From: Flavobacteriales bacterium
GTDB lineage: Bacteria; Bacteroidota; Bacteroidia; Flavobacteriales_F; PHOS-HE28
DNA: 64,000 nucleotides
Reading direction: 5' to 3'
Assembly: GCA_041691695.1 (NCBI GenBank)
Contig: JBEPUG010000001.1
Location: 23,922 to 87,921, forward strand
Every line of letters begins with the position of its first letter. Position 1 is the stretch's first letter. A program made the position numbers and the translations under genes. The notes under the pieces were generated by a model. It made no database searches and was not told the origin of the DNA. It saw nothing but the letters and a program-made list of their open reading frames with translations. Shown here piece by piece: positions 1,627-64,000 of this stretch.

Positions 1627-4600
1627 TCACTTCTCCCCATACCGCGGATCCGGCTTCCATGGCAGCTTCTCCATCCACTGCGTGCGCAGGCTCACGTGGC
1701 CGAACTCCTCCTCCACCACGCCAGTGAGGCGGTATACGCCGCGCCCGCGGAACGGGAAGCGCGCCGCCACGGAAGGGAACTGCGTACTGTCCCAGAGATC
1801 GCCCACAGTATCGATGAAGGAGCCGAAGGTCATCCGCTGGCCGCCCTGCGTATCGGTGGCCTTCACATGCACCATGTAGCCAAGCATCGTCACCTGCTTT
1901 CCGATGTGTTGATGCATCTCGCTTTTGAGGATAGTGAATGGTGAAAGGCCTTTGGTGAATGGGGCAGACCGCGTACTGCTCTTCAATTCGCCATTCACCG
2001 ATGACCAGTCACCGTATTCCACCAACGTGAACGGATCGCACAACGGAAAGCCCAGCAGATCCAGTTCATCATAGGCATCGGCCAGCGGAAAGTGATGCAG
2101 TTCCGGTAGCATCGGCTCTTCCACCTTCGTGATGAAGAGGTCCGCCATCGCGGAAGCGTTCACCGGCCCGACATGCAGCAGGGCGAGGTCCCACAGCAGT
2201 TGCGGCTTGCTCCTTCCGGTGAAGCGCAGGGCACCCACGCGGATGAGGATCCGCGCTTGTTCCAAGGGAAGCGGCACGCGATGCAAAAGATCCGGCAGGT
2301 CGGCGAAGGGTCCGTTGCGTTGGCGATCGTGGAGGATCAGTTGGACAGTTTCGTCGGTGAGGCTTTTGATGTTGGCGAGGCCGAGGTAGATGTAAGACGC
2401 GTGATTGGTGGCTGGTGATTGGTGATTGGGTACACCTGTGTCGCGACCTGGCCTGACAACGGATAACGGACAACCAGTGACTGGTGATGGGTGGCTGGTG
2501 ATCGGTGATAAGTTCCGCCCCTTCACCAATGGCCTATCACCATTCACCAAAACGCACAGCTCCCCGCTCGCATTCACGCACGGCGCCTCGATCACCGCGC
2601 CTTTCCGTTTCGCTTCGTGCAGGTAGAATTCGGTGCTGTAGAACCCGCCGAAGTTGTTCGCCACACCTACAAGGAATTCCATCGGATGATGCGCCTTCAG
2701 GTAGAGGCTCTGGTAGCTCTCCACCGCGTAGCTCGCGCTGTGCCCTTTCGCGAAGCTGAAGCTGGCAAAGCTTTCGATCTGCCGCCAGATCTCCTCGGCC
2801 TGCCCCTCGGGATAACCGCGTGCCTTGCAGTTGGAAAAAAACTTCTCTTCCACCACTTTGAACTCCGGTCGATCGCGGTAACGGATGTTCATGCCCCGAC
2901 GCACAGTATCGGCCTCCTCCAGATCGAGCCCTCCGTATTGGCTGGCCACGCGCAGCACATCCTCCTGGTAGACCATCACACCGTAGGTCTCCGGCATGAT
3001 GCGCAGGAGTTCCGGCACTGCCAGCTTCACGCGCTCGGGATCGTTGTGGCGCAGCAGGTATTCGCGCATCATTCCGCTCTCAGCCACGCCCGGCCGGATG
3101 ATGCTGCTGGCGGCCACCAGCCCGAGGTAATCATCAACCCGCAGCTTCTTCAGCAGCATGCGCATGGCCGGGCTTTCCACATAGAAACAGCCAACGGTGT
3201 CGCCAACGCGGATCAGTTCCTTGATCGCGGGATCTTGTTTGAATCGCGGGATGTCGTGGATGTCGATGCGAGGTGGTGAGGATGAATTGGGGCCGCAAAG
3301 GCCCGGAGACGCAGAGAATGGTAAGGATGAAGCAGGCGGTGATGGAAGCGCAGTTCTACATTCTACATTTTTCATTTTACATTTTTCATTCCCGTTTCTG
3401 GCTTCCACCAATTCAACCGCATCGCGGATATGCCCCAAGCCGCGCTGACTTAGCAGATCGAACTTGTGCAGGCCGAGGTCTTCCGCCTCGATCATGCTGA
3501 ACTGCGTGACGGGAAATCCTTTCGGCGGCCGATGCAGCGCGGTATAGCACGTGATGGGCCGCTCGCTCACCAACACGCCTGCCGAATGGATACCGAACTG
3601 GTGCGGCATGCCGATGAGATAGTTGCCATAGCGGATCACTGCCCGTGCGATCCGGTCCTGCTCACCGCGCGCTCCTTCAGGAAACCTCCGATGATCCCGG
3701 TAGTGCTCGCGCGAGCCCGCGCCCAGCGCATCGATCTCCGCAGGCGGCAATCCCAGCGCCTTACCCAACTCGCGGATCGCGCCGCGCCAATGAAAGGTGG
3801 TGTAGGTGGCAAGCTGCGCCACATGCTGACGCCCATCCTTGCCCGGACCAAATCGGGAGAACACATACTTGTACACTTCGTCGCGATCCTTCCAACTGAA
3901 ATCGATGTCGAAGTCCGGCGGCTTTTTGCGCGCGGTGCTGAGGAAGCGTTCGAAGTAGAGGTCCAACTCGATCGGATCCACGTCGGTGATCCCGAGGCAA
4001 TACGCCACCAAGCTGTTCGCGCCGCTGCCCCGGCCCACATGGAAAAAACCCTTGCTGCGAGCAAAACGCACGATGTCCTGGTTGATGAGGAAGTAGCTGA
4101 TGAAGTCCATGCCCTCGATCACATCCAACTCGTGCTCCATGCGCGCGATGACCTTTTGCGAAGCATTCGGATAGCGGTAGCTCAGCCCTTCCAGTGTATC
4201 GCGATGCAACTTCTCGCGATCCTGTGCGATGCTTTCGCCGAAGACCTTGCGCGTCTTGTCCGAGCCATCGAAGGTGATGGTGCATTGCTCCAGCAGGCGC
4301 TCGGCATTCTTCACCAGCGCAGGATGATCACGGTAGGTGTGCCGCACTTCCTCCTCGCTGCGGAAGACCTCATCCGATGCCGCAAGTTCTTCCGCAGGCA
4401 ACAGGCTCACCAGCGTGTTCTTCGCCATGGTGCGCAGCAGGCGGTGTGTATTGAAATCACGCTTGTTGCGAAACGTGACGGGCAACAACGCAACGAGGTC
4501 CTGCGATCGTTTCGTCCACGGACTGAAAGGAAGCCGCGTGAGTTCGGATGGTTTGATGCCGATGCGTTCGTTCGGTTTCAACATCCTCGGTGGCGTGCTG

Positions 4601-4944
4601 AAAGGCAGAATAAAAAAAGCATCCAGAAGTTCCGGCGGCTCCTCAGGCAGCGCTTCGCCATCAAGCAGGTGCGGACTCAACAGCTCGTTCAGTTGTTGAA
4701 AGCCGTTGTTGTTCTTCGCGAGACCGATGTAGAGCAACCGTGCCCCCTTTCGAAATTCAATGCCCGCGACCGACCGGATGCCGTGGCTTTCCGCAAGGCG
4801 CGCGAAGTCCGGGATGCCCGCCGTGTTGTGTATGTCGGTGAGTGCAAGGATGCGCACGCCCGCCTTCTGCGCTTCCTCCAAAAGCACCTCGGGTTTCATC
4901 ACCCCGTACTTGAAACTGAACCAGCTGTGCGCGTTGAGAAACAT
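1627..4944 (-). CDS. dnaE2: DNA polymerase III alpha-type catalytic subunit, short error-prone DnaE2/ImuC-like class, with three in-frame low-complexity insertions
   Basis: 1105-aa ORF. It has a PHP domain (MFLNAHSWFSFKYG, LALTDIHN) and polymerase core motifs (GRGSGANSLVAYCLGITDVDP, PDFDIDF, GCFYVESPAMR, SSIIRPGV, FAKGHSASYA). The length and N-terminus fit the DnaE2-like class rather than replicative DnaE1. Confidence 0.85.
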   Translation of the reverse strand: MFLNAHSWFSFKYGVMKPEVLLEEAQKAGVRILALTDIHNTAGIPDFARLAESHGIRSVAGIEFRKGARLLYIGLAKNNNGFQQLNELLSPHLLDGEALPEEPPELLDAFFILPFSTPPRMLKPNERIGIKPSELTRLPFSPWTKRSQDLVALLPVTFRNKRDFNTHRLLRTMAKNTLVSLLPAEELAASDEVFRSEEEVRHTYRDHPALVKNAERLLEQCTITFDGSDKTRKVFGESIAQDREKLHRDTLEGLSYRYPNASQKVIARMEHELDVIEGMDFISYFLINQDIVRFARSKGFFHVGRGSGANSLVAYCLGITDVDPIELDLYFERFLSTARKKPPDFDIDFSWKDRDEVYKYVFSRFGPGKDGRQHVAQLATYTTFHWRGAIRELGKALGLPPAEIDALGAGSREHYRDHRRFPEGARGEQDRIARAVIRYGNYLIGMPHQFGIHSAGVLVSERPITCYTALHRPPKGFPVTQFSMIEAEDLGLHKFDLLSQRGLGHIRDAVELVEARNGNEKCKMKNVECRTALPSPPASSLPFSASPGLCGPNSSSPPRIDIHDIPRFKQDPAIKELIRVGDTVGCFYVESPAMRMLLKKLRVDDYLGLVAASSIIRPGVAESGMMREYLLRHNDPERVKLAVPELLRIMPETYGVMVYQEDVLRVASQYGGLDLEEADTVRRGMNIRYRDRPEFKVVEEKFFSNCKARGYPEGQAEEIWRQIESFASFSFAKGHSASYAVESYQSLYLKAHHPMEFLVGVANNFGGFYSTEFYLHEAKRKGAVIEAPCVNASGELCVLVNGDRPLVKGRNLSPITSHPSPVTGCPLSVVRPGRDTGVPNHQSPATNHASYIYLGLANIKSLTDETVQLILHDRQRNGPFADLPDLLHRVPLPLEQARILIRVGALRFTGRSKPQLLWDLALLHVGPVNASAMADLFITKVEEPMLPELHHFPLADAYDELDLLGFPLCDPFTLVEYGDWSSVNGELKSSTRSAPFTKGLSPFTILKSEMHQHIGKQVTMLGYMVHVKATDTQGGQRMTFGSFIDTVGDLWDSTQFPSVAARFPFRGRGVYRLTGVVEEEFGHVSLRTQWMEKLPWKPDPRYGEK
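1933..2014. repeat. Simple-sequence island A inside dnaE2 (GTGAATGG-type units with a mirrored complementary arm)
   Basis: GTGAATGGTGAAAGGCCTTTGGTGAATGG lies at 1934-1962. GGTGAATGG at 1954-1962 is complementary to CCATTCACC at 1991-1999. The island is translated in frame as GDWSSVNGELKSSTRSAPFTKGLSPFT. Confidence 0.55.
2395..2547. repeat. Simple-sequence island B inside dnaE2 (GGTGATT/GGTGAT units, then an inverted copy of the island A unit)
   Basis: GGTGATT is tandemly duplicated at 2414-2427, and CTGGTGAT units occur at about 2480-2510. CTTCACCAATGGCCTATCACCATTCACC at 2521-2548 is a near reverse complement of 1934-1962. The island encodes about 51 extra residues between GELCVL and YIYLGLANIK. 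Confidence 0.6.
3268..3396. repeat. Simple-sequence island C inside dnaE2 (GGTGA-rich arm, GC hairpin, AT-rich tandem repeats)
   Basis: AGGTGGTGAGGATGAATTGG is followed by the hairpin GGGCCGCAAAGGCCC and by GGTGATGGAAG. TTCTACA is duplicated at 3354-3367 and TACATTTTTCATT at 3364-3376 and 3378-3390. The island encodes about 43 extra residues between DAVELVEAR and IDIHDIPRF. Confidence 0.6.
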
Positions 4945-44142: not shown

Positions 44143-45948
44143 CTAGTTCTCCTCCTCACCCTCTTCCAAAGGGACGTTCTGCGGCACGTAGTCCTCCAGC
44201 TTTCCGGGCTTGCTGTAATCATACGGCCAGCGGTAAACGGTTGGGATGGGGCCGGGCCAGTTGCCATGCATCTGCTTCATTGGAGCGGTCCATTCCAAAG
44301 TGTTGCTATGCCAAGGGTTTTCCGGGGCCTTCTGACCGCGCCATATGCTGTAGAAGAAATTGTACGTGAAGACCACTTGCACCGCCCCACCGACAAGTGC
44401 GAACATGGTGATCAGCACGTTCAGGTCCATTACACCGCCTTGGAACATGGGGAACTCGGTGTATTCGTAGTAACGGCGGGGGCCACCGGCCAATCCCACA
44501 TAGTGCATGGGGATGAAGACGCCATAAGCGCAGATCAGGGTGACCCAGAAGTGCAGGTAGCCGAGCTTTGTGTTCATCATTCGGCCGAACAGCCGCGGGA
44601 ACCAATGATAGACGCCGGCCAACATGGCGAAGATGGCGCTCACTCCCATCACCATGTGGAAGTGGGCGATCACGAAGTAGGTATCGTGCACCTGTATATC
44701 CAAGGCGCTATTCGCGAGTATGATGCCGGTGAGACCACCTGCTATAAAGGTGGACACCATGCCAATGCTGAAAAGCATAGCCGGTGAAAAAATGATGTTC
44801 CCTCCCCACAGTGTAGCGATATAGTTGAACACCTTCACCGCACTCGGTATGGCGATCAACATCGTGGTGAACACGAAGACGGAGCCGAGGAAGGGATTCA
44901 TGCCAGTGATGAACATGTGGTGGCCCCAGACGAGGAAGCTGAGGAAGGAGATCGCCATGAGTGAACCGATCATGGCCCGATAGCCGAAGATGGGTTTGCG
45001 GCTCATGGTGGAGATCACCTCGGAGCTGATACCGAAGGCAGGCAAGATCACGATGTACACCTCTGGGTGGCCAAGGAACCAGAACAAGTGCTGATAGAGG
45101 ATCGGACTGCCGCCCATGTGGTCCAACGCCTCACCTGCGATGTGGATCTCGCTGAGGTAGAAGCTCGTACCCAGCATGCGGTCCATGATCAGCAAGGCCA
45201 CTGCGCTCACCAGCACAGGGAAGGCCAATACACCGAGTATGGCGGTAAGTAGGAATGCCCAAATGGTCAATGGCAGGCGCGTCATTCGCATACCCTTGGT
45301 GCGCAGGTTCAGCACCGTCACGATATAGTTGAGGCTGCCCATCAGCGAACCCGCGATGAAGAGCACCATACTGAAGAGCCACAGGGTCATGCCCGTGCCG
45401 GAGCCGGGAATAGCTTGGGGCAGTGCACTCAGCGGCGGGTAGACCGTCCAACCTCCGGCAGCGGGTCCGCTTTCCACAAAGAGGGAGGAAAGCATCACGA
45501 TGGTCGCCGCGAGGAAGAACCAAAAGGAAAGCATGTTGATGAAGCCGCTCGCCATGTCACGCGCGCCCACCTGGAAGGGTATAAGCAGATTGCTGAATGT
45601 TCCCGAAAGACCACCGGTCAATACGAAGAACACCATGATGGTACCGTGGATAGTGACCAGCGCGAGATACATGGTGGAACTGAGCACACCATTGGGGGCC
45701 CACTTATCACCAAGAAAGAAGTGGGTGAAGGCGAAGCTCTCACCGGGAAAGGCGATCTGCAGGCGGAAGATCATGGACATGATCATGGCCACCCAGGCCA
45801 TGATGATGGCGGTGATCAGGAACTGCTTACTGATCATCTTATGGTCCTGCGAGAAGATGTACTTCGAGATGAAGCTCTCCTTGTGGTGATGATGCTCCGC
45901 GTGGGCGTGGCCGCTATCGGCCGCCGACGGATGGGCTACGGCGCTCAT
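44143..45948 (-). CDS. ctaD: Cytochrome c oxidase subunit I
   Basis: HLFWFLGHPEVYIVILPAFG, WGHHMFITGMNP and VIAHFHMVMG. The protein is 601 aa and polytopic. Confidence 0.95.
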   Translation of the reverse strand: MSAVAHPSAADSGHAHAEHHHHKESFISKYIFSQDHKMISKQFLITAIIMAWVAMIMSMIFRLQIAFPGESFAFTHFFLGDKWAPNGVLSSTMYLALVTIHGTIMVFFVLTGGLSGTFSNLLIPFQVGARDMASGFINMLSFWFFLAATIVMLSSLFVESGPAAGGWTVYPPLSALPQAIPGSGTGMTLWLFSMVLFIAGSLMGSLNYIVTVLNLRTKGMRMTRLPLTIWAFLLTAILGVLAFPVLVSAVALLIMDRMLGTSFYLSEIHIAGEALDHMGGSPILYQHLFWFLGHPEVYIVILPAFGISSEVISTMSRKPIFGYRAMIGSLMAISFLSFLVWGHHMFITGMNPFLGSVFVFTTMLIAIPSAVKVFNYIATLWGGNIIFSPAMLFSIGMVSTFIAGGLTGIILANSALDIQVHDTYFVIAHFHMVMGVSAIFAMLAGVYHWFPRLFGRMMNTKLGYLHFWVTLICAYGVFIPMHYVGLAGGPRRYYEYTEFPMFQGGVMDLNVLITMFALVGGAVQVVFTYNFFYSIWRGQKAPENPWHSNTLEWTAPMKQMHGNWPGPIPTVYRWPYDYSKPGKLEDYVPQNVPLEEGEEEN

Positions 45949-56783: not shown

Positions 56784-59510
56784 CTACCCTTCCAACGTAC
56801 GCTTCACTTCGATCATCTCGAAGGCCTCGACGTGGTCCCCTACCTTGATGTCGTTAAAGTTCTTGATGCTGAGGCCGCACTCGTAACCGTGTGTCACCTC
56901 CTTCGCATCATCCTTGAAACGCTTGAGGTCGCTGAGGTCACCGGTGTAGATGACAATGCTGTCGCGAATGAGACGCACCTTGCTGTTGCGTGTGATCTTG
57001 CCGTCCAGCACGTAGCAACCAGCCACGGTTCCCACCTTGCTGATGCGGAAGGTGTCGCGCACCTCAGCGGTACCGATAACGTTCTCCACCTCCTTCGGGG
57101 CAAGCATTCCTTCCATGGCGAGCTTCAGTTCCTCGATGGCATCGTAGATGATGGAGTAGAGGCGGATCTCGATTTCTTCGTTCTCGGCCAGTTTCCGCGC
57201 GCCCACTGTCGGACGAACCTGGAAGCCGACAATGATGGCGTTGGACGCGGATGCCAGCAGCACGTCGCTCTCGGCGATGGGACCCACGGCCTTGTGTATC
57301 ACATTCACCTTGATGTTTTGGGTGCTGAGCTTCAACAACGAGTCCGTCAACGCTTCGACAGAACCGTCCACGTCGCCCTTCACGATCACATTGAGTTCCT
57401 TGAAGTCACCGATGGCCAAACGTCGTCCTATCTCGTCCAGGGTGATGTGCTTGTGCGTACGTATGCCCTGCTCGCGCTGCAGCTGCTGACGGCGGGTTGC
57501 GATCTGGCGCGCCTCGCGCTCATCCGCCATCACATGGAAGCGATCGCCTGCGTTCGGTGCTCCGTCCAAGCCTAGGATCGATACAGGCATGGAAGGCCCT
57601 GCCTCGGGAACGGACTGGCCGCGCTCATTGAACATGTTCCGCACCCGACCGCTGTATTGGCCGACCAGAAGTATGTCGCCCTTATGCAAGGTGCCACCTT
57701 CCACCAATAGGGTGGTCACATAGCCGCGACCCACTTCAAGCGTGCTTTCGATCACCACGCCGGTGGCGCGCTTCTCAGGATCGGCCTTCAGGTCCAGCAG
57801 ATCGGCCTCCAACAACACCTTGTCGAGGAGCTGCTCGATCCCGATCCCCTTCTTCGCGCTGATCTCTTGCGTCTGATACTTGCCGCCCCATTCCTCTACG
57901 AGGATATTCATCTGGGAGAGCTGCTCGCGGATCTTCTCCGCATTGGCACCGTCCTTATCGATCTTGTTGAAGGCGAAGACCATGGGAACACCTGCCGCCT
58001 GCGCGTGGTTGATTGCCTCGCGTGTCTGCGGCATTACGCTGTCGTCCGCCGCGATCACGATGATGGCGATATCGGTGACCTGCGCACCACGGGCACGCAT
58101 GGCAGTAAAGGCTTCGTGGCCCGGAGTATCTAGGAAGGCGATGCGCTTCCCGTTGTCCAACTCAACGCTGTACGCGCCGATGTGCTGGGTGATACCACCT
58201 GCCTCTCCAGCGATCACATTGGCCTTGCGGATATGGTCGAGCAAGGAGGTCTTGCCATGGTCCACGTGGCCCATCACGGTGACGATAGGTGCACGAGGTT
58301 CCATCCGCTCGGGGGCATCAGCCTCCTCCACCATGGTGTCCTGTACATCCGCACCGACAAATTCCACCTTGAACCCATACTCATCGGCGATCACGGCCAA
58401 GGTCTCAGCATCGAGGCGCTGGTTGATGCTCACCATCATACCCAAGGAGAAATACGCCTTGATAATGTCGGTGATCGGAACGTCCATCATGGAGGACAAT
58501 TCGCTGGCTGTGACGAATTCGGTCACCTTCAACGTCCGGCCCGCCAACTGTCGCGCCTGGTCCTCCTCTTCGCGGCGTTGATAGCGTTCTTGGCGTTTGT
58601 CGCCCTTCCGCTTGGCACCTCGACCCCGTCCTCCACCGCCGCCGCTGGTCAGGCGCGCCAAGGTCTCGCTCACCTTTCGCTTCACGGCATTCTCGTCCAA
58701 CTCACCTGGGCGACCCGGAGGCGCAGTGCGTTGCTCCTGTTGAACCACGCGTCCCACGTTCACTGGACCGGGTTTCACGATCCGTTTGCGACGTCCGCGG
58801 TCGCGGCTGTTGTCACGTTCGGAAGGTTTGCGCTCGCGCTCCTTGGGCAATTCGATCTTGCCCACTGTCTTTGGGCCAGCAAGCTTTTGCACATTCACCC
58901 GAATGGTCTCCGGCTCAGTAGGCGCAGGAGTTGGCACTACCGGAGGCTTGGGTGCTTCCACCTTTACCGGGACAGGAGGCTTTTCGGGAATGGGCTTGGG
59001 AGCGGGTTCGCTCTTCTTGACGGGTTGTGGGCGCTTCTTCCCAGCATCCAGATCGATCTTGCCGACGGTCTTGGGGCCGGCGACCCTGGTGGGTGTCGCG
59101 CGGATCACTTCCGGTCCGGAGGTGGAAGGCACTTCGGCCTTTAGCGTCGGTTCCGCGATCGGAGCAGCTTTGGTAGCTGGTGCTTTCTCTTCCGCTGGTG
59201 GGGCGGTTGGCTGCGTCGGCTCGGCAGGGGGCACTGGAGCCTCAGGCTCCACTACGGGCGCACTGGCCAAGGCAACGACCTCGCGCTCTTGGCGCTCCTG
59301 GATCACCTGCTTGCTGGCCTGCTTCTCGGCCTTATCCTGCCCAAATTCCTTTTCGAGAAGTGCATAGAGTTCCCCTGGGATCTTTGCGTTCGGCGAAGCC
59401 TCTACTTCGTGACCCTTCGCGGCGAGGAATTCCACCACGGTATGCACGCCGAGATTGAAATCCCGCGTCACCTTGCTCAATCGCACCGTCTTTCCTTCCG
59501 TTTCGCTCAT
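56784..59510 (-). CDS. infB: Translation initiation factor IF-2
   Basis: G domain motifs [24 protein letters not shown] and NKIDK. The N-terminal region is P/A/K-rich. Confidence 0.97.
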
Positions 59511-59513
59511 GCG

Positions 59514-59576
59514 CTCCTAATTCTCGTTTTGCCCCGACTGCCTACTGCTATCTGCCACTGCCTACTGCTTCTGTTA
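59514..59576. repeat. Intergenic simple-sequence island E (nusA-infB spacer) with a 13-nt direct repeat
   Basis: ACTGCCTACTGCT occurs at 59537-59549 and 59557-59569. It shares the core ACTGCCnACT with island D. Confidence 0.5.
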
Positions 59577-60815
59577 CTACTTCGCCAATTCCGACTTCAG
59601 CACACGCAGCACTTCGATCACCGTCTCTTCTTCCAGATCGGTGCGCTTCACCAGATCCTCCGCGGTGATCTCCACCACTGAACGGGCGGTGTCACAGCCG
59701 ATGCTCTTCAATTCGTTGATTATCCATGGTTCGATCTCGTCGCTGAACTCGTCGAGGTCCACGTCGTCGGTCACCTCATCGCTGTCGCGGTACACATCGA
59801 TATCGAAACCGGTGAGCTTGCCCGCCAACTTGATGTTGTGGCCGCCTTTGCCGATGGCCAACGCCACCTGATCAGGCTTCATATAGACCTCTGCGCGCTT
59901 GTTGACCAGGTCCAGTTTGATCTCGCCGACCTTGGCCGGGCTCAGCGCACGCTGGATCAACAGCGAGTCATTGGCCGTCCAGTTGATCACATCGATGTTC
60001 TCGTTGCGCAGTTCGCGCACGATGCCATGGATGCGGCTGCCCTTCATGCCCACGCAAGCGCCCACCGGATCGATGCGGTCATCATAGCTTTCTACAGCAA
60101 CCTTGGCGCGCTCACCGGGTTCACGCACGATGCGCTTGATGGTGATGAGACCGTCGGCCACCTCGGGCACTTCCTGCTCGAACAACTTCTCGAGGAACTC
60201 AGGAGCTGCACGGCTCAGCAGCACCACCGGGCTGTTGTTGCGCATCTCCACCTTCCACACCACGGCGCGGACGGTGTCGCCTTTCTTGAAAAAGTCCGTC
60301 TTGATGTGCTGGTCCTTGGGCATGATCAACTCGTTGCCCTCGTCGTCCAGGATCAAGGTCTCGCGCTTCCAGATCTGATACACCTCGCCGGTGATGATCT
60401 CGCCCACGCGCTCCTTGTACTTGTTGTAGATGTGGTCCTTCTCCAGTTCCATGATGCGGCTCTGGAGGTTCTGCTTCAGGGAAAGGATGTTGCGGCGGCC
60501 GAAGTCAGGGATCTTCACCTCTTGGCTCACTTCCTCGCCCACTTCGAAGTCGGGCTCGATCTTCAATGCCTCACTCAGCGGGATCTGCAGGCCCTCATCT
60601 TCCACCTCACCGTCAGGCACGATCTCGCGGTTCAGCCAGATCTCCAGGTCACCCTTGTCAGGGTTGATGATGATGTCGAACTTGGCTTCTTCGCCATACT
60701 TCCGTTTCACCACGCCACGGAAGACATCCTCGAGGATGCCCATCATGGTCACGCGGTCGATGTTCTTGATGTCCTTGAATTCCCCGAAGGATTCGATGAG
60801 GTTCACTGTGCTCAT
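59577..60815 (-). CDS. nusA: Transcription termination/antitermination factor NusA
   Basis: S1 and KH domains (VGACVGMKGSRIHGIVREL, ALAIGKGGHNIKLAGKLTG), positioned between rimP and infB. Confidence 0.96.
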   Translation of the reverse strand: MSTVNLIESFGEFKDIKNIDRVTMMGILEDVFRGVVKRKYGEEAKFDIIINPDKGDLEIWLNREIVPDGEVEDEGLQIPLSEALKIEPDFEVGEEVSQEVKIPDFGRRNILSLKQNLQSRIMELEKDHIYNKYKERVGEIITGEVYQIWKRETLILDDEGNELIMPKDQHIKTDFFKKGDTVRAVVWKVEMRNNSPVVLLSRAAPEFLEKLFEQEVPEVADGLITIKRIVREPGERAKVAVESYDDRIDPVGACVGMKGSRIHGIVRELRNENIDVINWTANDSLLIQRALSPAKVGEIKLDLVNKRAEVYMKPDQVALAIGKGGHNIKLAGKLTGFDIDVYRDSDEVTDDVDLDEFSDEIEPWIINELKSIGCDTARSVVEITAEDLVKRTDLEEETVIEVLRVLKSELAK

Positions 60816-61626: not shown

Positions 61627-64000
61627 CATGTCCGCATCCGTTGAAAACCACCCCGAGGTTCCTGAAGACAAGCGCCTCTTCCTCCTCGACGCCTTCGCCC
61701 TGATCTATCGGGCCTACTTCAGCTTCATCCGCAATCCGCGCATCAACAGCCAACGGATGAACACCAGCGCGGCCTTTGGTTTCACGCTGACCTTGTTGGA
61801 CCTGATCAAGCGCGAAAAGCCTACACACCTCGCCGTGGTTTTCGACACCGATGCGCCCACGGAGCGCCACACCACCTTGCTCGAATACAAAGCAAACCGC
61901 GAGGCGATGCCGGACGACATCCGCACCAACCTGCCCTACATCCGCCGGATCATCGAGGCGTTCAACATTCCGGTGATCGAAAGTGACGGTTACGAGGCGG
62001 ACGACGTGATCGGCACACTTGCGAAAAAGGCGGAGAAGGAAGGCTACACAACCTATATGGTCACGCCGGACAAGGACTTCGGACAACTGGTGACAGAGAG
62101 GATCCTGATGTATAAGCCGGGCCGCAGCGGCGCGCCTCCCGAAGTATTGGGCATCAAGGAGATCTGCGATCGCTGGGGCTTGGAGAATACCGATCAGGTG
62201 CGGGACATCCTTGGCCTGATGGGCGATGCAGTGGACAACATTCCCGGCATCCCCGGCATCGGCGAGAAGACCGCGATGAAACTGGTGCAACAGTTCGGCA
62301 GCCTGGAGGGCGTGATCGACGGCGTGGAGCAGCTCAAGGGCAAGCAGAAGGAAAATGTGATCGCCTTCGCGGAGCAAGGGCTCATGAGCAAGGCCTTGGC
62401 AACCATCCTTGTGGATGCGCCCGTGGACGTGGATCACACCGCGTTGCATCTCGACCCGCCGGACAAGGAGAAGATCACGGAGGTCTTCAGCGAATTGGAG
62501 TTCCGTTCGCTGATCAAGACAGTGCTTGGCGAAGATGCACACGTGGAGGCGACGCCCGCCGCTCCTGCAGTGCGCAAGAAGGTTCTGGTGAACGCAGACC
62601 AGATCAGCATGTTCGGTGGTGAAGAAGGTGAAGAAGGTGAGGGAGGAGAGGGTGGCCAGGGTGGCGATGGAGGTACAGCCATGGTCGACCTCTCCACTAC
62701 GCCTCACCGATATCAAATAGCCGATACGCCTGAAAAGCAATCGGCCTTGGCCAAGGAATTGGCGGGCCTGAAGTCCTTCTGCTTCGACACGGAGACCGAC
62801 AACCTCGATCTGCAAAAGGCGGAGATGGTCGGACTTTCCTTCAGCTGGAAAGACCATACTGGCTGGTATGTTCCGGTGCCTGCAGGCATAGCGGCCGCAC
62901 AAGCCGTTACCGAGCGCTTCCGCGCGGTGCTGGAAGATAAACACATCACGAAGGTGGCTCAGAACCTGAAGTACGACATGCTCGTGATGGAGCGCTACGG
63001 CATCAGCGTACAAGGCCCGCAGTTCGACACCATGCTCGCGCACTTCCTGCTCGAATCGGACCTGCGCCACGGCATGGATTACATGGCCGAGACGATCCTG
63101 CACTACCGCCCGAAGCCGATCACCGACCTCATCGGACCGAAGGGCAAAGGCCAAAGGAATATGCGCGATGTGCCCGTGGAGATCGCGGCCGAATACGCAG
63201 CTGAGGATGCCGACATCACCTGGCAGCTCCATGAAAAACTGGCTCCGCTGCTGAAGGAGAAGGACCAGGAGAAACTCTTTCACGACGTGGAGATGCCGTT
63301 GGTGCGCGTGTTGGCGGATATGGAGCGCGAAGGGATCCGCTTGGATGTGGATGCCCTGAAAGCTTTCAGCATCGAGCTTGGTAATGACATCCTCGACTTG
63401 CAGGAAAAGATCATTGCGGCGTGCGGTGTTCCCTTCAACATCGATTCACCCAAGCAACTCGGCGACGTGCTTTTTGAAACGCTAAAGCTTGGTGGCGAAA
63501 AGCCCAAGAAGACGCGCACCGGTCAGTACCAGACCAGTGAGGATATTCTAAGTACGATGGCGAATGAGCACGCCGCCATCCCGCTGATCCTCGATTATCG
63601 CAGCCTTCGGAAATTGAAGGGCACGTATGTCGATACACTTCCTCTCGCGGTGGATCCCGCTGATGGCCGTGTTCATACAAACTACCGTCAGGCCGTGGCC
63701 GCCACCGGTCGTCTCAGCAGCGATGAGCCGAATCTGCAGAACATCCCGATCCGCACCGAGAAAGGCCGCGAGATACGCAAGGCTTTTGTGCCACGCGATG
63801 AACGCTATGGCCTACTCAGCGCGGACTATTCACAGATCGAGCTGCGCATCATCGCCCACATGAGCGGCGACCACAACATGCAGGAGGCTTTCCGTAACGG
63901 GCTGGACATCCATGCCGCCACCGCTGCCAAGGTTTTCAACGTGGATCTCACGGAGGTTTCGCGCGAGCAACGCAGCCGAGCCAAGGCGGTCAACTTCGGT
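61627..64000 (+). CDS. polA: DNA polymerase I, N-terminal about 790 codons; the 3' end lies outside the window
   Basis: The ATG at 61627 gives MSASVENHPEVPEDKRLFLLDAFALIYRAYF (5' nuclease domain). Also present are DNIPGIPGIGEKTAMKLV, Exo I FCFDTETDNLD, RLSSDEPNLQNIPIR and ADYSQIELRIIAH. The frame is open to the window end and is not listed in the ORF track because no stop is reached. Confidence 0.95.
62615..62676. repeat. Simple-sequence island F inside polA (linker between the 5' nuclease and 3'-5' exonuclease domains)
   Basis: The DNA reads GGTGGTGAAGAAGGTGAAGAAGGTGAGGGAGGAGAGGGTGGCCAGGGTGGCGATGGAGGTA and is translated as GGEEGEEGEGGEGGQGGDGG. It shares GATGGAGGTA with 37978-37987 and GGTGGTGA with 3272-3279. 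Confidence 0.5.

Follow-up and report, generated by a model that had tools for sequence, protein, structure and literature searches.

The DNA analysed here, a continuous stretch of 64,000 nucleotides hereafter called the 64-kb window, carries on its minus strand a dnaE-like gene (Table 1) whose product, as indicated by its Pfam domains, is a DNA polymerase of the DnaE family (C-family). The best NCBIfam matches of this protein were DnaE, with 487 bits, and the error-prone DnaE2, with 473 bits, both below the respective cut-offs (NF004226, 487 against 1002; NF004225, 472.6 against 939), and for this reason the label 'DnaE2-like', which had been attached to the gene in a sequence-only reading, is only approximate. 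Next to the dnaE-like gene, a gene for a Y-family polymerase is conserved and transcribed convergently, and no imuA was seen in the gene neighbourhoods examined; with this arrangement and a score under the NF004225 cut-off, the polymerase was not assigned to DnaE2/ImuC. The PDFDIDF catalytic motif and the Asp of KFDLLS were invariant in 97 homologues.

The three in-frame peptide segments reported by the sequence-only reading, here named islands A, B and C, are indeed present in the gene, with the boundaries listed in Table 1; the start of the third one was correct, but it ends at 2013 and not at 2014. As had been claimed, the reading frame is kept, the polymerase being about 107 aa longer than the 998-aa orthologues. 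An identical orthologue, inserts included, was found in independent JGI and Logan assemblies. Predicted peptides across the islands would derive, for instance, from NLSPITSHPSPVTGCPLSVVRPGR.

Table 1. Position of the host gene, of the islands and of their parts in the 64-kb window.
Feature	Position	Strand	Description
dnaE-like host gene	1627-4944	minus	ORF and translation, 1105 aa
Domains of the host polymerase	aa 4-99 (PHP), 245-498 (palm), 559-709 (fingers), 785-915 (HhH), C-terminal (OB fold)		Pfam
Island C	1933-2013	minus	aa 978-1004; single hairpin element of the GEW...SPFT family, linker before the OB fold; arms 1934-1963 and 1988-2013 (inverted repeat I6)
Island B	2395-2547	minus	aa 800-850; nested composite, beta-hairpin turn just before the HhH motif
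Outer arm of B	2401-2430		GTGATTG x4, sense-strand reading NHQSPATNH; TRF, direct repeats D1 and D4, inverted repeats I2 and I4
Nested module in B	2428-2475		48 nt, GACAACG x3 plus GGCCAGGTCGCGAC, translated GCPLSVVRPGRDTGV; TRF period 7 at 2455-2474
Inner hairpin element of B	2477-2547		complete; arms 2477-2508 (GGTGATN heptamers) and 2518-2547 (inverted copy of the 30-nt unit); inverted repeats I1 and I5
Island A	3268-3396	minus	aa 517-559; composite one-armed insert, palm/finger loop
Part of island A	3268-3353		'FSASPGLCGPNSSSPPR' module
Part of island A	3354-3391		TTCTACA / 14-nt array, translated NEKCKMKNVEC; TRF
Candidate fourth island	62611-62691	plus	G-rich GGTGAAGAA-type array (GGEEGEEGEGGEGGQGGDGG), polA inter-domain linker

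Arrays of period 7 or 14 were detected by TRF at 2401-2429, 2455-2474, 2477-2508 (period 14) and 3354-3391, and all of them are short and imperfect, with 2-5 units and 81-89% matches. The motif GGTGAWTGG occurs 6 times in the 64-kb window, where 1.6 occurrences are expected, and 5 of the 6 fall inside the dnaE-like gene. Islands B and C have in common a 30-nt unit with a non-heptamer AGGCC core, GTGAATGGTGAAAGGCCTTTGGTGAATGGG at 1934-1963, whose inverted copy at 2518-2547 differs by 3 mismatches against a chance expectation of 0 matches; it had been noticed earlier as a 29-nt unit at 1934-1962, inverted at 2521-2548, and the pairing proposed between GGTGAATGG at 1954-1962 and CCATTCACC at 1991-1999 was likewise found. 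The pattern AATGAAGAATGTAGAATG matched the window at island A only, and this island shares 56 nt (82% identity) with site A and 40 nt (87.5% identity) with site B of the locus L003. Around island B the HHH_6 Pfam profile, of 90 positions, is stretched across 131 aa. The inner hairpin element of this island is 87% identical in the orthologue L001, while an alignment of the DNA of the window, L001 and L003 revealed that the 48-nt nested module is missing from the otherwise orthologous L001 insert; the peptide of this module, SCQLSVVRPxRDANG, recurs in P0002 and P0004 (site A) and in P0006 (site B). Orthologous copies of island C are present in P0002, P0003, P0034 and P0056.

The folding of the RNA was not the same in the three islands. 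The z score was −3.5 for island C and, for the inner part of B, −2.3 in the sense and −5.2 in the antisense orientation (plus strand), whereas island A gave +1.0. Thus the palindromic nature and the complementary arms that had been attributed to every island hold for C and for the inner part of B, but not for A, which is one-armed and forms no hairpin. When 90-nt hairpins were ranked across the 64-kb window, B was third and C twelfth; the strongest of all, at 45751-45840, was discarded as an insert because it encodes a native transmembrane helix of cytochrome oxidase. Among the orthologous inserts with DNA available, 11 of 19 had z ≤ −3 and several, like island A, had no hairpin at all. In five copies of the island C stem we counted 0 compensatory pairs and 10 broken cells; the stems decay without compensatory changes.

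To place the islands on the protein fold, we used the alignment with E. coli Pol III alpha and an AF2 model of the polymerase (pTM 0.71). Island A aligns between residues 577 and 581 of the E. coli protein and island B at the turn around 826-830; in the model, B lies between the strands E798-801 and E850-853. The pLDDT was below 50 at 522-558 (island A) and 981-999 (island C), and about 30 for island B, so that the three sites, a palm/finger loop, a beta-hairpin turn and a pre-OB linker, are all modelled as low-confidence coil. Together with the alignment of the orthologues, these data support the earlier view of the segments as insertions, which are lineage-specific and sit in loops of a conserved polymerase.

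The comparison was extended to 120 orthologues from Flavobacteriales MAGs (NCBI, ENA, JGI and Logan), considering a site occupied when it held at least 8 extra residues. All the sampled alleles are in frame; as only full-length ORFs were taken, the preservation of the frame is partly an ascertainment effect. In the insert-free orthologues the protein is 996-999 aa long. Site A was occupied in 91/120 orthologues, B in 88/120 and C in 79/120, that is about 70% each among proteins of 66-84% identity; all three sites were filled in 62 of the 120 and none in 17. The content of the inserts is non-homologous between orthologues, which contain mosaics of about 10 recurring module families, and both the presence and the family type are patchy among close relatives. 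This content, and the 998-aa forms without inserts, argue against a conserved homologous domain, the alternative that the sequence-only reading had named as fatal to its own proposal. Moreover, the families change site, GEW..SPFT being found at A, B and C, and NVECKMKN at A and B, and peptide periods of 7 aa, such as NHQSPIT, were observed in relatives. At the DNA level the flanks are conserved and the inserts exchanged; within L003, sites A and B share a stretch of 28 nt with 96% identity. The three sites are hot spots with rapid turnover rather than three one-off insertions. Between the window and L001 the identity is 82-87% for islands B and C and 72% for third codon positions; being less diverged than synonymous sites, the shared inserts may be younger or under some constraint.

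One filled/empty pair was informative on how an allele changes. P0032 (empty) and P0020 (filled) are identical in blocks of more than 800 nt, and the insert lies within a divergent patch of about 250 nt, in which it takes the place of 18-21 native bases instead of being cleanly inserted. The difference between the two alleles is a recombination import, and empty and filled alleles, together with the module families, could be used as markers of recombination between strains.

The modules are not confined to the polymerase. The 22-base pattern TTCACCAANNNNCATTCACCATTCAC was found at 48 metagenome loci, 47 outside dnaE and 1 in dnaE. In-frame copies of the modules are present in Mfd (two sites), an IcmF-type mutase, a P-type ATPase, adenylate cyclase and RibF; many further matches to TTCACCAANNNNCATTCACCATTCAC lie only within short ORFs, apparently in intergenic DNA, and some of them (e.g. 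L036) contain stop codons. In one Flavobacteriales MAG two adjoining modules are located upstream of a gene, and in the MAG WBZY01 module matches occur on three contigs. In this lineage Mfd varies in length from 1132 to 1228 aa and has 3-4 hot spots of its own, filled by the same module families, and an interrupted arm, GEWELANGEW (GGTGAAT GGGAACT GGCGAAT GGTGAAT), recurs at sites A and C of dnaE and in Mfd. Between genes the heptamer arms are mainly common and the loops mostly different; since arms and not loops are shared, part of this similarity could reflect a common mutational process.

On the other hand, the copies are very unevenly spread. The dnaE-like genes, about 30 kb in all, contained 19 islands, versus a single weak candidate in flanks of about 150 kb, and, because modules are nearly absent from these flanks, the dnaE-like gene appears as a strong sink; the elements appear to be sparse in the genome and concentrated in this gene, a distribution that random transposition alone does not predict. 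Outside the dnaE-like gene, the 64-kb window held no further copies except a candidate in polA (Table 1), between the 5'-nuclease and the 3'-5' exonuclease domains (Pfam), with a TRF array at 62618-62640 and a tblastn match (E 6e-7) to the 'GEGG/PPSPP' insert family; apart from this linker, 257 insert peptides searched against the window (tblastn, E ≤ 1) gave noise. The strict pattern TCACCAANGGCCNNTCACCAT gave 11 matches in 185,579 species genomes, about the number expected by chance and with one in a Flavobacteriales MAG, in a scan of low power because the pattern is specific for the 'NGH' subfamily and the species of the window is apparently outside the collection. A word-index protein search with two concatenated module peptides yielded no candidates, the low-complexity words being probably unindexed, and HMMER with the island B peptide against 1.84 billion representatives returned 3 weak and uninformative foreign matches (a tandem NHQSPIT protein, a repeat protein and a leucine-rich protein).

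Relatives carry different patches in the same loops, and the patches of the polymerase also turn up in other genes, which points to a selfish-repeat phenomenon. We consider it probable that the islands arose when small repeated elements, typical of a single Flavobacteriales lineage, were inserted in frame, and that these elements are comparable to Rickettsia palindromic elements (RPE) in their selfish behaviour and to STRR in their heptamer architecture. RPE are palindromic repeats that lie in frame within conserved genes unrelated to each other, at sites compatible with the protein fold, belonging to several families and occurring also in non-coding DNA (PMC10969869). The resemblance proposed by the sequence-only reading extends to these features: the inserts are in frame, lineage-specific and largely palindromic, have several families, occupy loops and linkers of the polymerase and of the unrelated conserved proteins listed above, and have intergenic copies. 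It fails for the heptamer mosaics, the non-palindromic island A and the turnover at hot spots. In fact, RPE are single units of about 100-150 bp, whereas those described here are of 25-90 nt, nested, mosaic, heptamer-based and from another phylum; several families replace one another at one site, and the density per genome is apparently low with a strong concentration in few genes. On account of this unit and host, we set the islands apart from the RPE families.

The architecture of the modules is closer to the cyanobacterial STRR heptamers. As in STRR, tandem 7-nt units (by TRF) are lineage-restricted and patchy, and some inverted sets form stem-loops. The GGTGATT unit is presumably one base away from STRR2 (TTGGTCA, read as GGTCATT). 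Bacterial heptamer repeats of this kind (STRR; TAACTGA, GGGAATC), lineage-restricted and patchy, are documented also in Bacteroidetes (PMC4679880, PMC4692102), but those published lie mostly between genes and are scarcer than expected in coding regions (PMC4692102), whereas here, in a Flavobacteriales host, short arrays paired into hairpins are fixed in frame in the coding sequence of conserved enzymes. A full-text search of the literature returned no account of heptamer or palindromic inserts lying in frame in genes of Flavobacteriales or Bacteroidota, in agreement with what had been supposed from the sequence. Invasion of conserved genes by in-frame palindromes, known chiefly from Rickettsia, would thus extend to free-living Bacteroidota of wastewater, soil and freshwater, with a different building block, the heptamer hairpin, and with an unusual dynamic in which a few loops are filled in most relatives by modules that differ and are rapidly exchanged.

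The modules measure 25-90 nt and are built either of degenerate heptanucleotide repeats (such as GGTGAAT/ATTCACC, TTCTACA, GACAACG) or of short stem-loops rich in GC. When complete, an element has a G-rich arm, a loop and a complementary arm, and, by virtue of this complementarity, single-stranded DNA or RNA would fold as a hairpin. As to how such a pattern could arise, copies would be sparsely scattered in intergenic and genic DNA, the genic survivors being those that preserve the reading frame, no longer contain in-frame TGA codons and are positioned in a loop or linker. A filled site would remain changeable, by nested insertion, loss of an arm or replacement by another family, and strains would exchange alleles through homologous recombination; these processes together would explain why the same three loops carry different mosaics across relatives. 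Most likely, the inserts are translated as disordered surface loops that affect the polymerase little and undergo neutral decay. We infer that they are selfish or neutral and tolerated by the enzyme, and they would offer a natural experiment on where Pol III alpha-type polymerases, and likewise Mfd, accept disordered insertions of 20-90 residues. From a practical point of view, such low-complexity segments may mislead protein annotation, domain calling and alignment in MAGs.

A more specific proposal, which we put forward tentatively and judge rather unlikely, is that the islands represent an undescribed class of tiny in-frame modules homing to already occupied loops ('landing pads') in a few large genes, including the dnaE-like gene, mfd and polA, where a dedicated mechanism, directed by the hairpins, would exchange one for another and maintain a standing system of hypervariable disordered loops in conserved enzymes, as opposed to the passive remains of random insertion. 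Should a dedicated mechanism exist, the modules would be miniature mobile elements of a new type. Against the explanation favoured above, no mobilising enzyme came to light in the loci examined, and neither terminal inverted repeats nor a target-site duplication was seen in the P0032/P0020 pair.

The latter observation would also suit local simple-sequence dynamics with no mobility, in which heptamer-like seeds in the loops were expanded by slippage, a template switch produced the inverted arm, and the motifs in other genes reflect a shared mutational bias. Indeed, a seed, TTGGTGGAA, precedes sites A and C, whose native flank, TTGGTGGA, is one base off the GGTGAAT unit; the arms are common across genes and the loops mostly not, and in many bacteria no long SSRs are as over-represented as heptamers (PMC4679880, PMC4692102). 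Nevertheless, we give this explanation a small probability: empty alleles of site B lack the seed (CTCCACGGCACG), at least ten unrelated families share the same sites, including non-heptamer stem-loops such as GTCGACCCnnnGGGTCGAC, and the recurrence of the specific GEWELANGEW arm in dnaE and Mfd, the 28 nt nearly identical between sites A and B of L003, and the AGGCC core of the unit shared by B and C also speak against it.

Slightly less probable still is a selected function, namely mRNA or DNA hairpins by which an error-prone polymerase is kept at a low level, heptamer tracts working as frameshift switches (phase variation), or diversifying selection on hypervariable surface loops, for instance to escape an inhibitor. 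The high occupancy of each site across divergent orthologues, the lower divergence of B and C than of synonymous sites with respect to L001, a repeat unit that is not a multiple of three, and the presence of several repair/replication genes (dnaE-like, mfd, possibly polA) among those affected would all be expected. By contrast, the orthologues empty at all sites and the differences between close relatives, the lack of conservation of sequence and structure, the stems without compensatory change, the hairpin-less inserts, and the same modules in metabolic genes and intergenic DNA argue against it. In addition, the arrays, being short and imperfect (2-4 units, 81-89% matches), are poor substrates for slippage; with 2-5 imperfect units and all alleles in frame, in a sample biased towards intact ORFs, a phase-variable contingency locus was rejected.

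That the islands are genuine conserved segments of a polymerase subfamily, to which the inserts at the same positions in most orthologues could point, or artefacts of assembly, deserves hardly any credit, given the non-homologous content, the 998-aa forms without segments, the predicted disorder, the same insert-bearing protein in independent JGI and Logan assemblies, and insert-bearing orthologues from all four sources. Inteins were discarded, as there are no intein motifs, the positions are in loops and the sequences are variable; so were translational bypassing elements, the frame being kept and stops being absent.

The in-frame repeats also share with REP/REPIN and MITE sequences the small size, the non-autonomous state and the ability to form hairpins. 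MITEs carry terminal inverted repeats and target-site duplications; the P0020 insert, a single event brought in by recombination, replaces about 18-21 native bases with no duplication, and the islands were not classified as MITEs. In the loci examined no RAYT gene, the transposase that mobilises REP/REPIN, was identified, and their gene tables contain no Y1 transposase. REPs are extragenic, with GTAG or CGTC tags (PMC3733652), whereas the polymerase copies are intragenic; some families, e.g. GTCGACCCnnnGGGTCGAC, resemble REP stem-loops, and the clustering and nesting of the modules recalls the BIME-type clusters of REP.

In the 120 best homologues of the polymerase (66-84% identical; those named all come from Flavobacteriales bacterium MAGs), lengths ranged from 996 to 1158 aa, plus one of 1417 aa. 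The variation was concentrated exactly at three sites, A, B and C, which coincide with the three extra peptide segments that the sequence-only reading had noticed in the window gene, here called islands A, B and C and placed as shown in the table. The ~998-aa forms have short native loops at the three sites (ERKGEH, HGT and D.PEE.P.AP). When at least 8 extra residues were taken to define a filled site, site A was filled in 91 of the homologues, site B in 88 and site C in 79; all three were filled in 62 and none in 17. In NCBIfam, the window gene scores 487 bits with DnaE and 473 bits with error-prone DnaE2, in both cases well short of the curated cut-off. It is thus a divergent DnaE-family polymerase, for which the label 'DnaE2-like' is approximate only.

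Polymerase gene, islands and repeat arrays in the window
Feature	Position (nt)	Strand	Extent in protein
dnaE-family polymerase ORF	1627-4944	minus	1105 aa
PHP domain (Pfam)			aa 4-99
Pol III alpha palm (Pfam)			aa 245-498
Fingers (Pfam)			aa 559-709
HhH (Pfam)			aa 785-915
Island A peptide	3268-3396	minus	aa 517-559
Island B peptide	2395-2547	minus	aa 800-850
Island C peptide	1933-2013	minus	aa 978-1004
Period-7 or period-14 array	2401-2429
Period-7 or period-14 array	2455-2474
Period-7 or period-14 array	2477-2508
Period-7 or period-14 array	3354-3391

Across orthologues the inserts are non-homologous and sort into about ten recurring families, each able to occur at more than one site: GEWxxVNGEW...SPFTNxHSPFT, NxECxMKNxEC...HSTFxIDHSTF, VVSCQLSVV...TTDNxQPTT, SEDQMIRRSE, TQDTSHKxQ...CDLxLxTCDF, ATGHGLRATGW...AQPVAHGPQP, CTVDPPGRP, GERVRE...SPSHPLTLAP, EGLTRRREDAK and GEGGKGG...PPSPP. 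Where their peptides repeat every 7 residues, one period spans three heptanucleotides, with each of the three reading frames used. On a neighbour-joining tree built from the core alignment, close relatives show a scattered pattern of filled and empty states and of families at each site. In the DNA of the window and of two orthologous loci (L001 and L003), the flanks are conserved and the inserts swapped. Island B of the window is the L001 hairpin with a nested extra module of 48 nt (2428-2475), which recurs in other orthologues at other sites. In one homologue (P0118) site C is expanded by 358 residues, in which a ~21-aa unit (ALSTEREGPSEGTVAR...) is repeated in tandem about 15 times, so that this site can also host long tandem amplification. 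The site A insert of another, P0003 (L001 11546-11628, 'VDPxGRP' family), is a perfect small stem-loop, GTCGACCCAGAGGGTCGAC, present twice in direct orientation, which is REP-like and not heptamer-based; thus, unrelated repeat types use one and the same loop.

Aligned with E. coli Pol III alpha (2HNH), site A corresponds to the palm/finger junction, between residues 577 and 581, and site B to a beta-hairpin turn at ~826-830, ahead of the HhH motif. In an AlphaFold2 model built from 97 homologues (pTM 0.71), the inserts are coil, with pLDDT <50 at residues 522-558, 807-846 and 981-999; site B is flanked by strands 798-801 and 850-853, and site C comes immediately ahead of the OB fold. The catalytic aspartates are invariant in the 97 homologues. 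The inserts thus lie in loops and linkers, outside the core.

At the DNA level, the inverted repeat described earlier proved to be a 30-nt unit (1934-1963) with an inverted copy at 2518-2547 (3 mismatches; chance expectation none), and GGTGAWTGG occurs 6 times in the window against 1.6 expected, 5 of the 6 inside the polymerase gene. Complementary arms had been proposed for each island; folding supported them in island C (z -3.5) and in the inner portion of B (z -2.3 on the sense and -5.2 on the antisense strand), but not in island A (z +1.0), which has one arm only. In a sliding 90-nt fold over the whole window, islands B and C ranked 3rd and 12th. In five orthologous copies of the island C stem, ten pair cells are broken and no base-pair change is compensatory; the hairpin thus came with the element and is now in decay rather than maintained. 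Islands B and C of the window are 82-87% identical to those of L001, compared to 72% at third codon positions; between these two genomes, they have therefore diverged less than synonymous sites. P0032, in which site A is empty, and P0020, in which it is filled, share identical blocks of >800 nt and differ in a ~250-nt patch centred on the insert. The latter takes the place of some 18-21 native bases, and the target is not duplicated. At least this polymorphism goes back to a diverged allele imported by homologous recombination, not to a fresh insertion; such import can explain part of the scatter on the tree.

The modules are not dispersed inside the window, but are so outside it. Insert DNA of three orthologues and 257 insert peptides found no match in the window beyond the polymerase gene except the polA linker, and the ~150 kb flanking ten dnaE-like genes gave only this weak candidate, whereas the genes themselves contain 19 islands. 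In the linker (62611-62691, plus strand), a G-rich array encodes GGEEGEEGEGGEGGQGGDGG between the 5'-nuclease and 3'-5' exonuclease domains; its likeness to one arm of the 'GEGG...PPSPP' family of dnaE-like and Mfd genes makes it a possible fourth island. A first, strict pattern gave chance-level matches over species-representative genomes, one of them real, in a Flavobacteriales MAG. There (L005 2800-2890), upstream of a gene, GGTGAATGG and TTCTACATTTTTCATT modules adjoin in non-coding DNA, a TTCTACATTTTTCATT-type module lying directly beside a GGTGAATGGTGAATGGCCGTTGGTGAATGG module; a further NVEC-type match is at 4424-4501.

A second pattern, TTCACCAANNNNCATTCACCATTCAC (22 specified bases), matched 48 metagenome loci, one of them in a dnaE-like gene. 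By Pfam, modules lie in frame in a fused IcmF-type methylmalonyl-CoA mutase, in Mfd (two different sites), in a heavy-metal P-type ATPase, in an adenylate cyclase and in the riboflavin kinase domain of RibF. Many remaining matches have short ORFs only and are apparently intergenic, some with stop codons (e.g. L036); coding copies use variant heptamers without in-frame TGA. Two ~90% identical Mfd genes (L027, L063) carry different families at one site, and Mfd of this lineage, retrieved with one of these two as query (P0124-P0243, Flavobacteriales MAGs, 1132-1228 aa), has 3-4 hot-spot sites with the same module families as the dnaE-like gene. A 4.48-Mb contig encodes both one of these Mfd proteins and a dnaE-like homologue. 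Thus, the phenomenon is lineage-wide and involves many genes, the polymerase gene being among its strongest sinks.

The best-supported explanation is that the islands are small, selfish or neutral palindromic heptamer repeat elements, in frame in conserved genes. They would survive only where frame, stop-free reading and protein fold allow, would be translated as disordered loops tolerated by the enzyme, and filled sites would remain open to nesting, arm loss and replacement. An origin by local slippage and template switching alone, with no mobility, is weakened by non-heptamer modules, and particular interrupted variants of the arms, that sites and genes have in common. A selected function, either regulatory or diversifying, is weakened by the existence of empty alleles, the lack of conservation of the inserts, the one-armed inserts and modules shared with metabolic genes and spacers.

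Among known systems, the Rickettsia palindromic elements (PMC10969869) are the closest to these elements in behaviour. The likeness drawn by the sequence-only reading stands for in-frame repeats in conserved genes, but the islands are probably not members of the RPE families, judging by their different host, their shorter and modular units and their hot-spot turnover. STRR (cyanobacterial heptanucleotide tandem repeats) and other heptamer repeats have a similar architecture, but are reported as mainly intergenic, with some found in Bacteroidetes (PMC4679880, PMC4692102). REP and MITE hallmarks were absent from the single informative comparison (P0032 vs P0020). The full-text literature searched held no account of such in-frame inserts in Flavobacteriales.

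Next to the dnaE-like gene, in the window as in three other loci (L003, L067, L068), lies a conserved, convergently transcribed Y-family polymerase gene (IMS/IMS_C; 11-1525 in the window). The cargo that separates their 3' ends varies: in the window it is a Bro-N protein, in relatives an SBBP/T9SS protein, RelE or ParE toxin modules, or an Mrr-type nuclease. The sole other period-7 array of the window, an imperfect ACTGCCT x4.7 (59537-59568), lies in the short spacer of nusA (59577-60815, minus) and infB (56784-59510, minus). The palindrome GCGATCGC, which in cyanobacteria is called HIP1, occurs at 7 sites in the window (e.g. 489, 6388, 52318), against 2.3 expected from shuffles.
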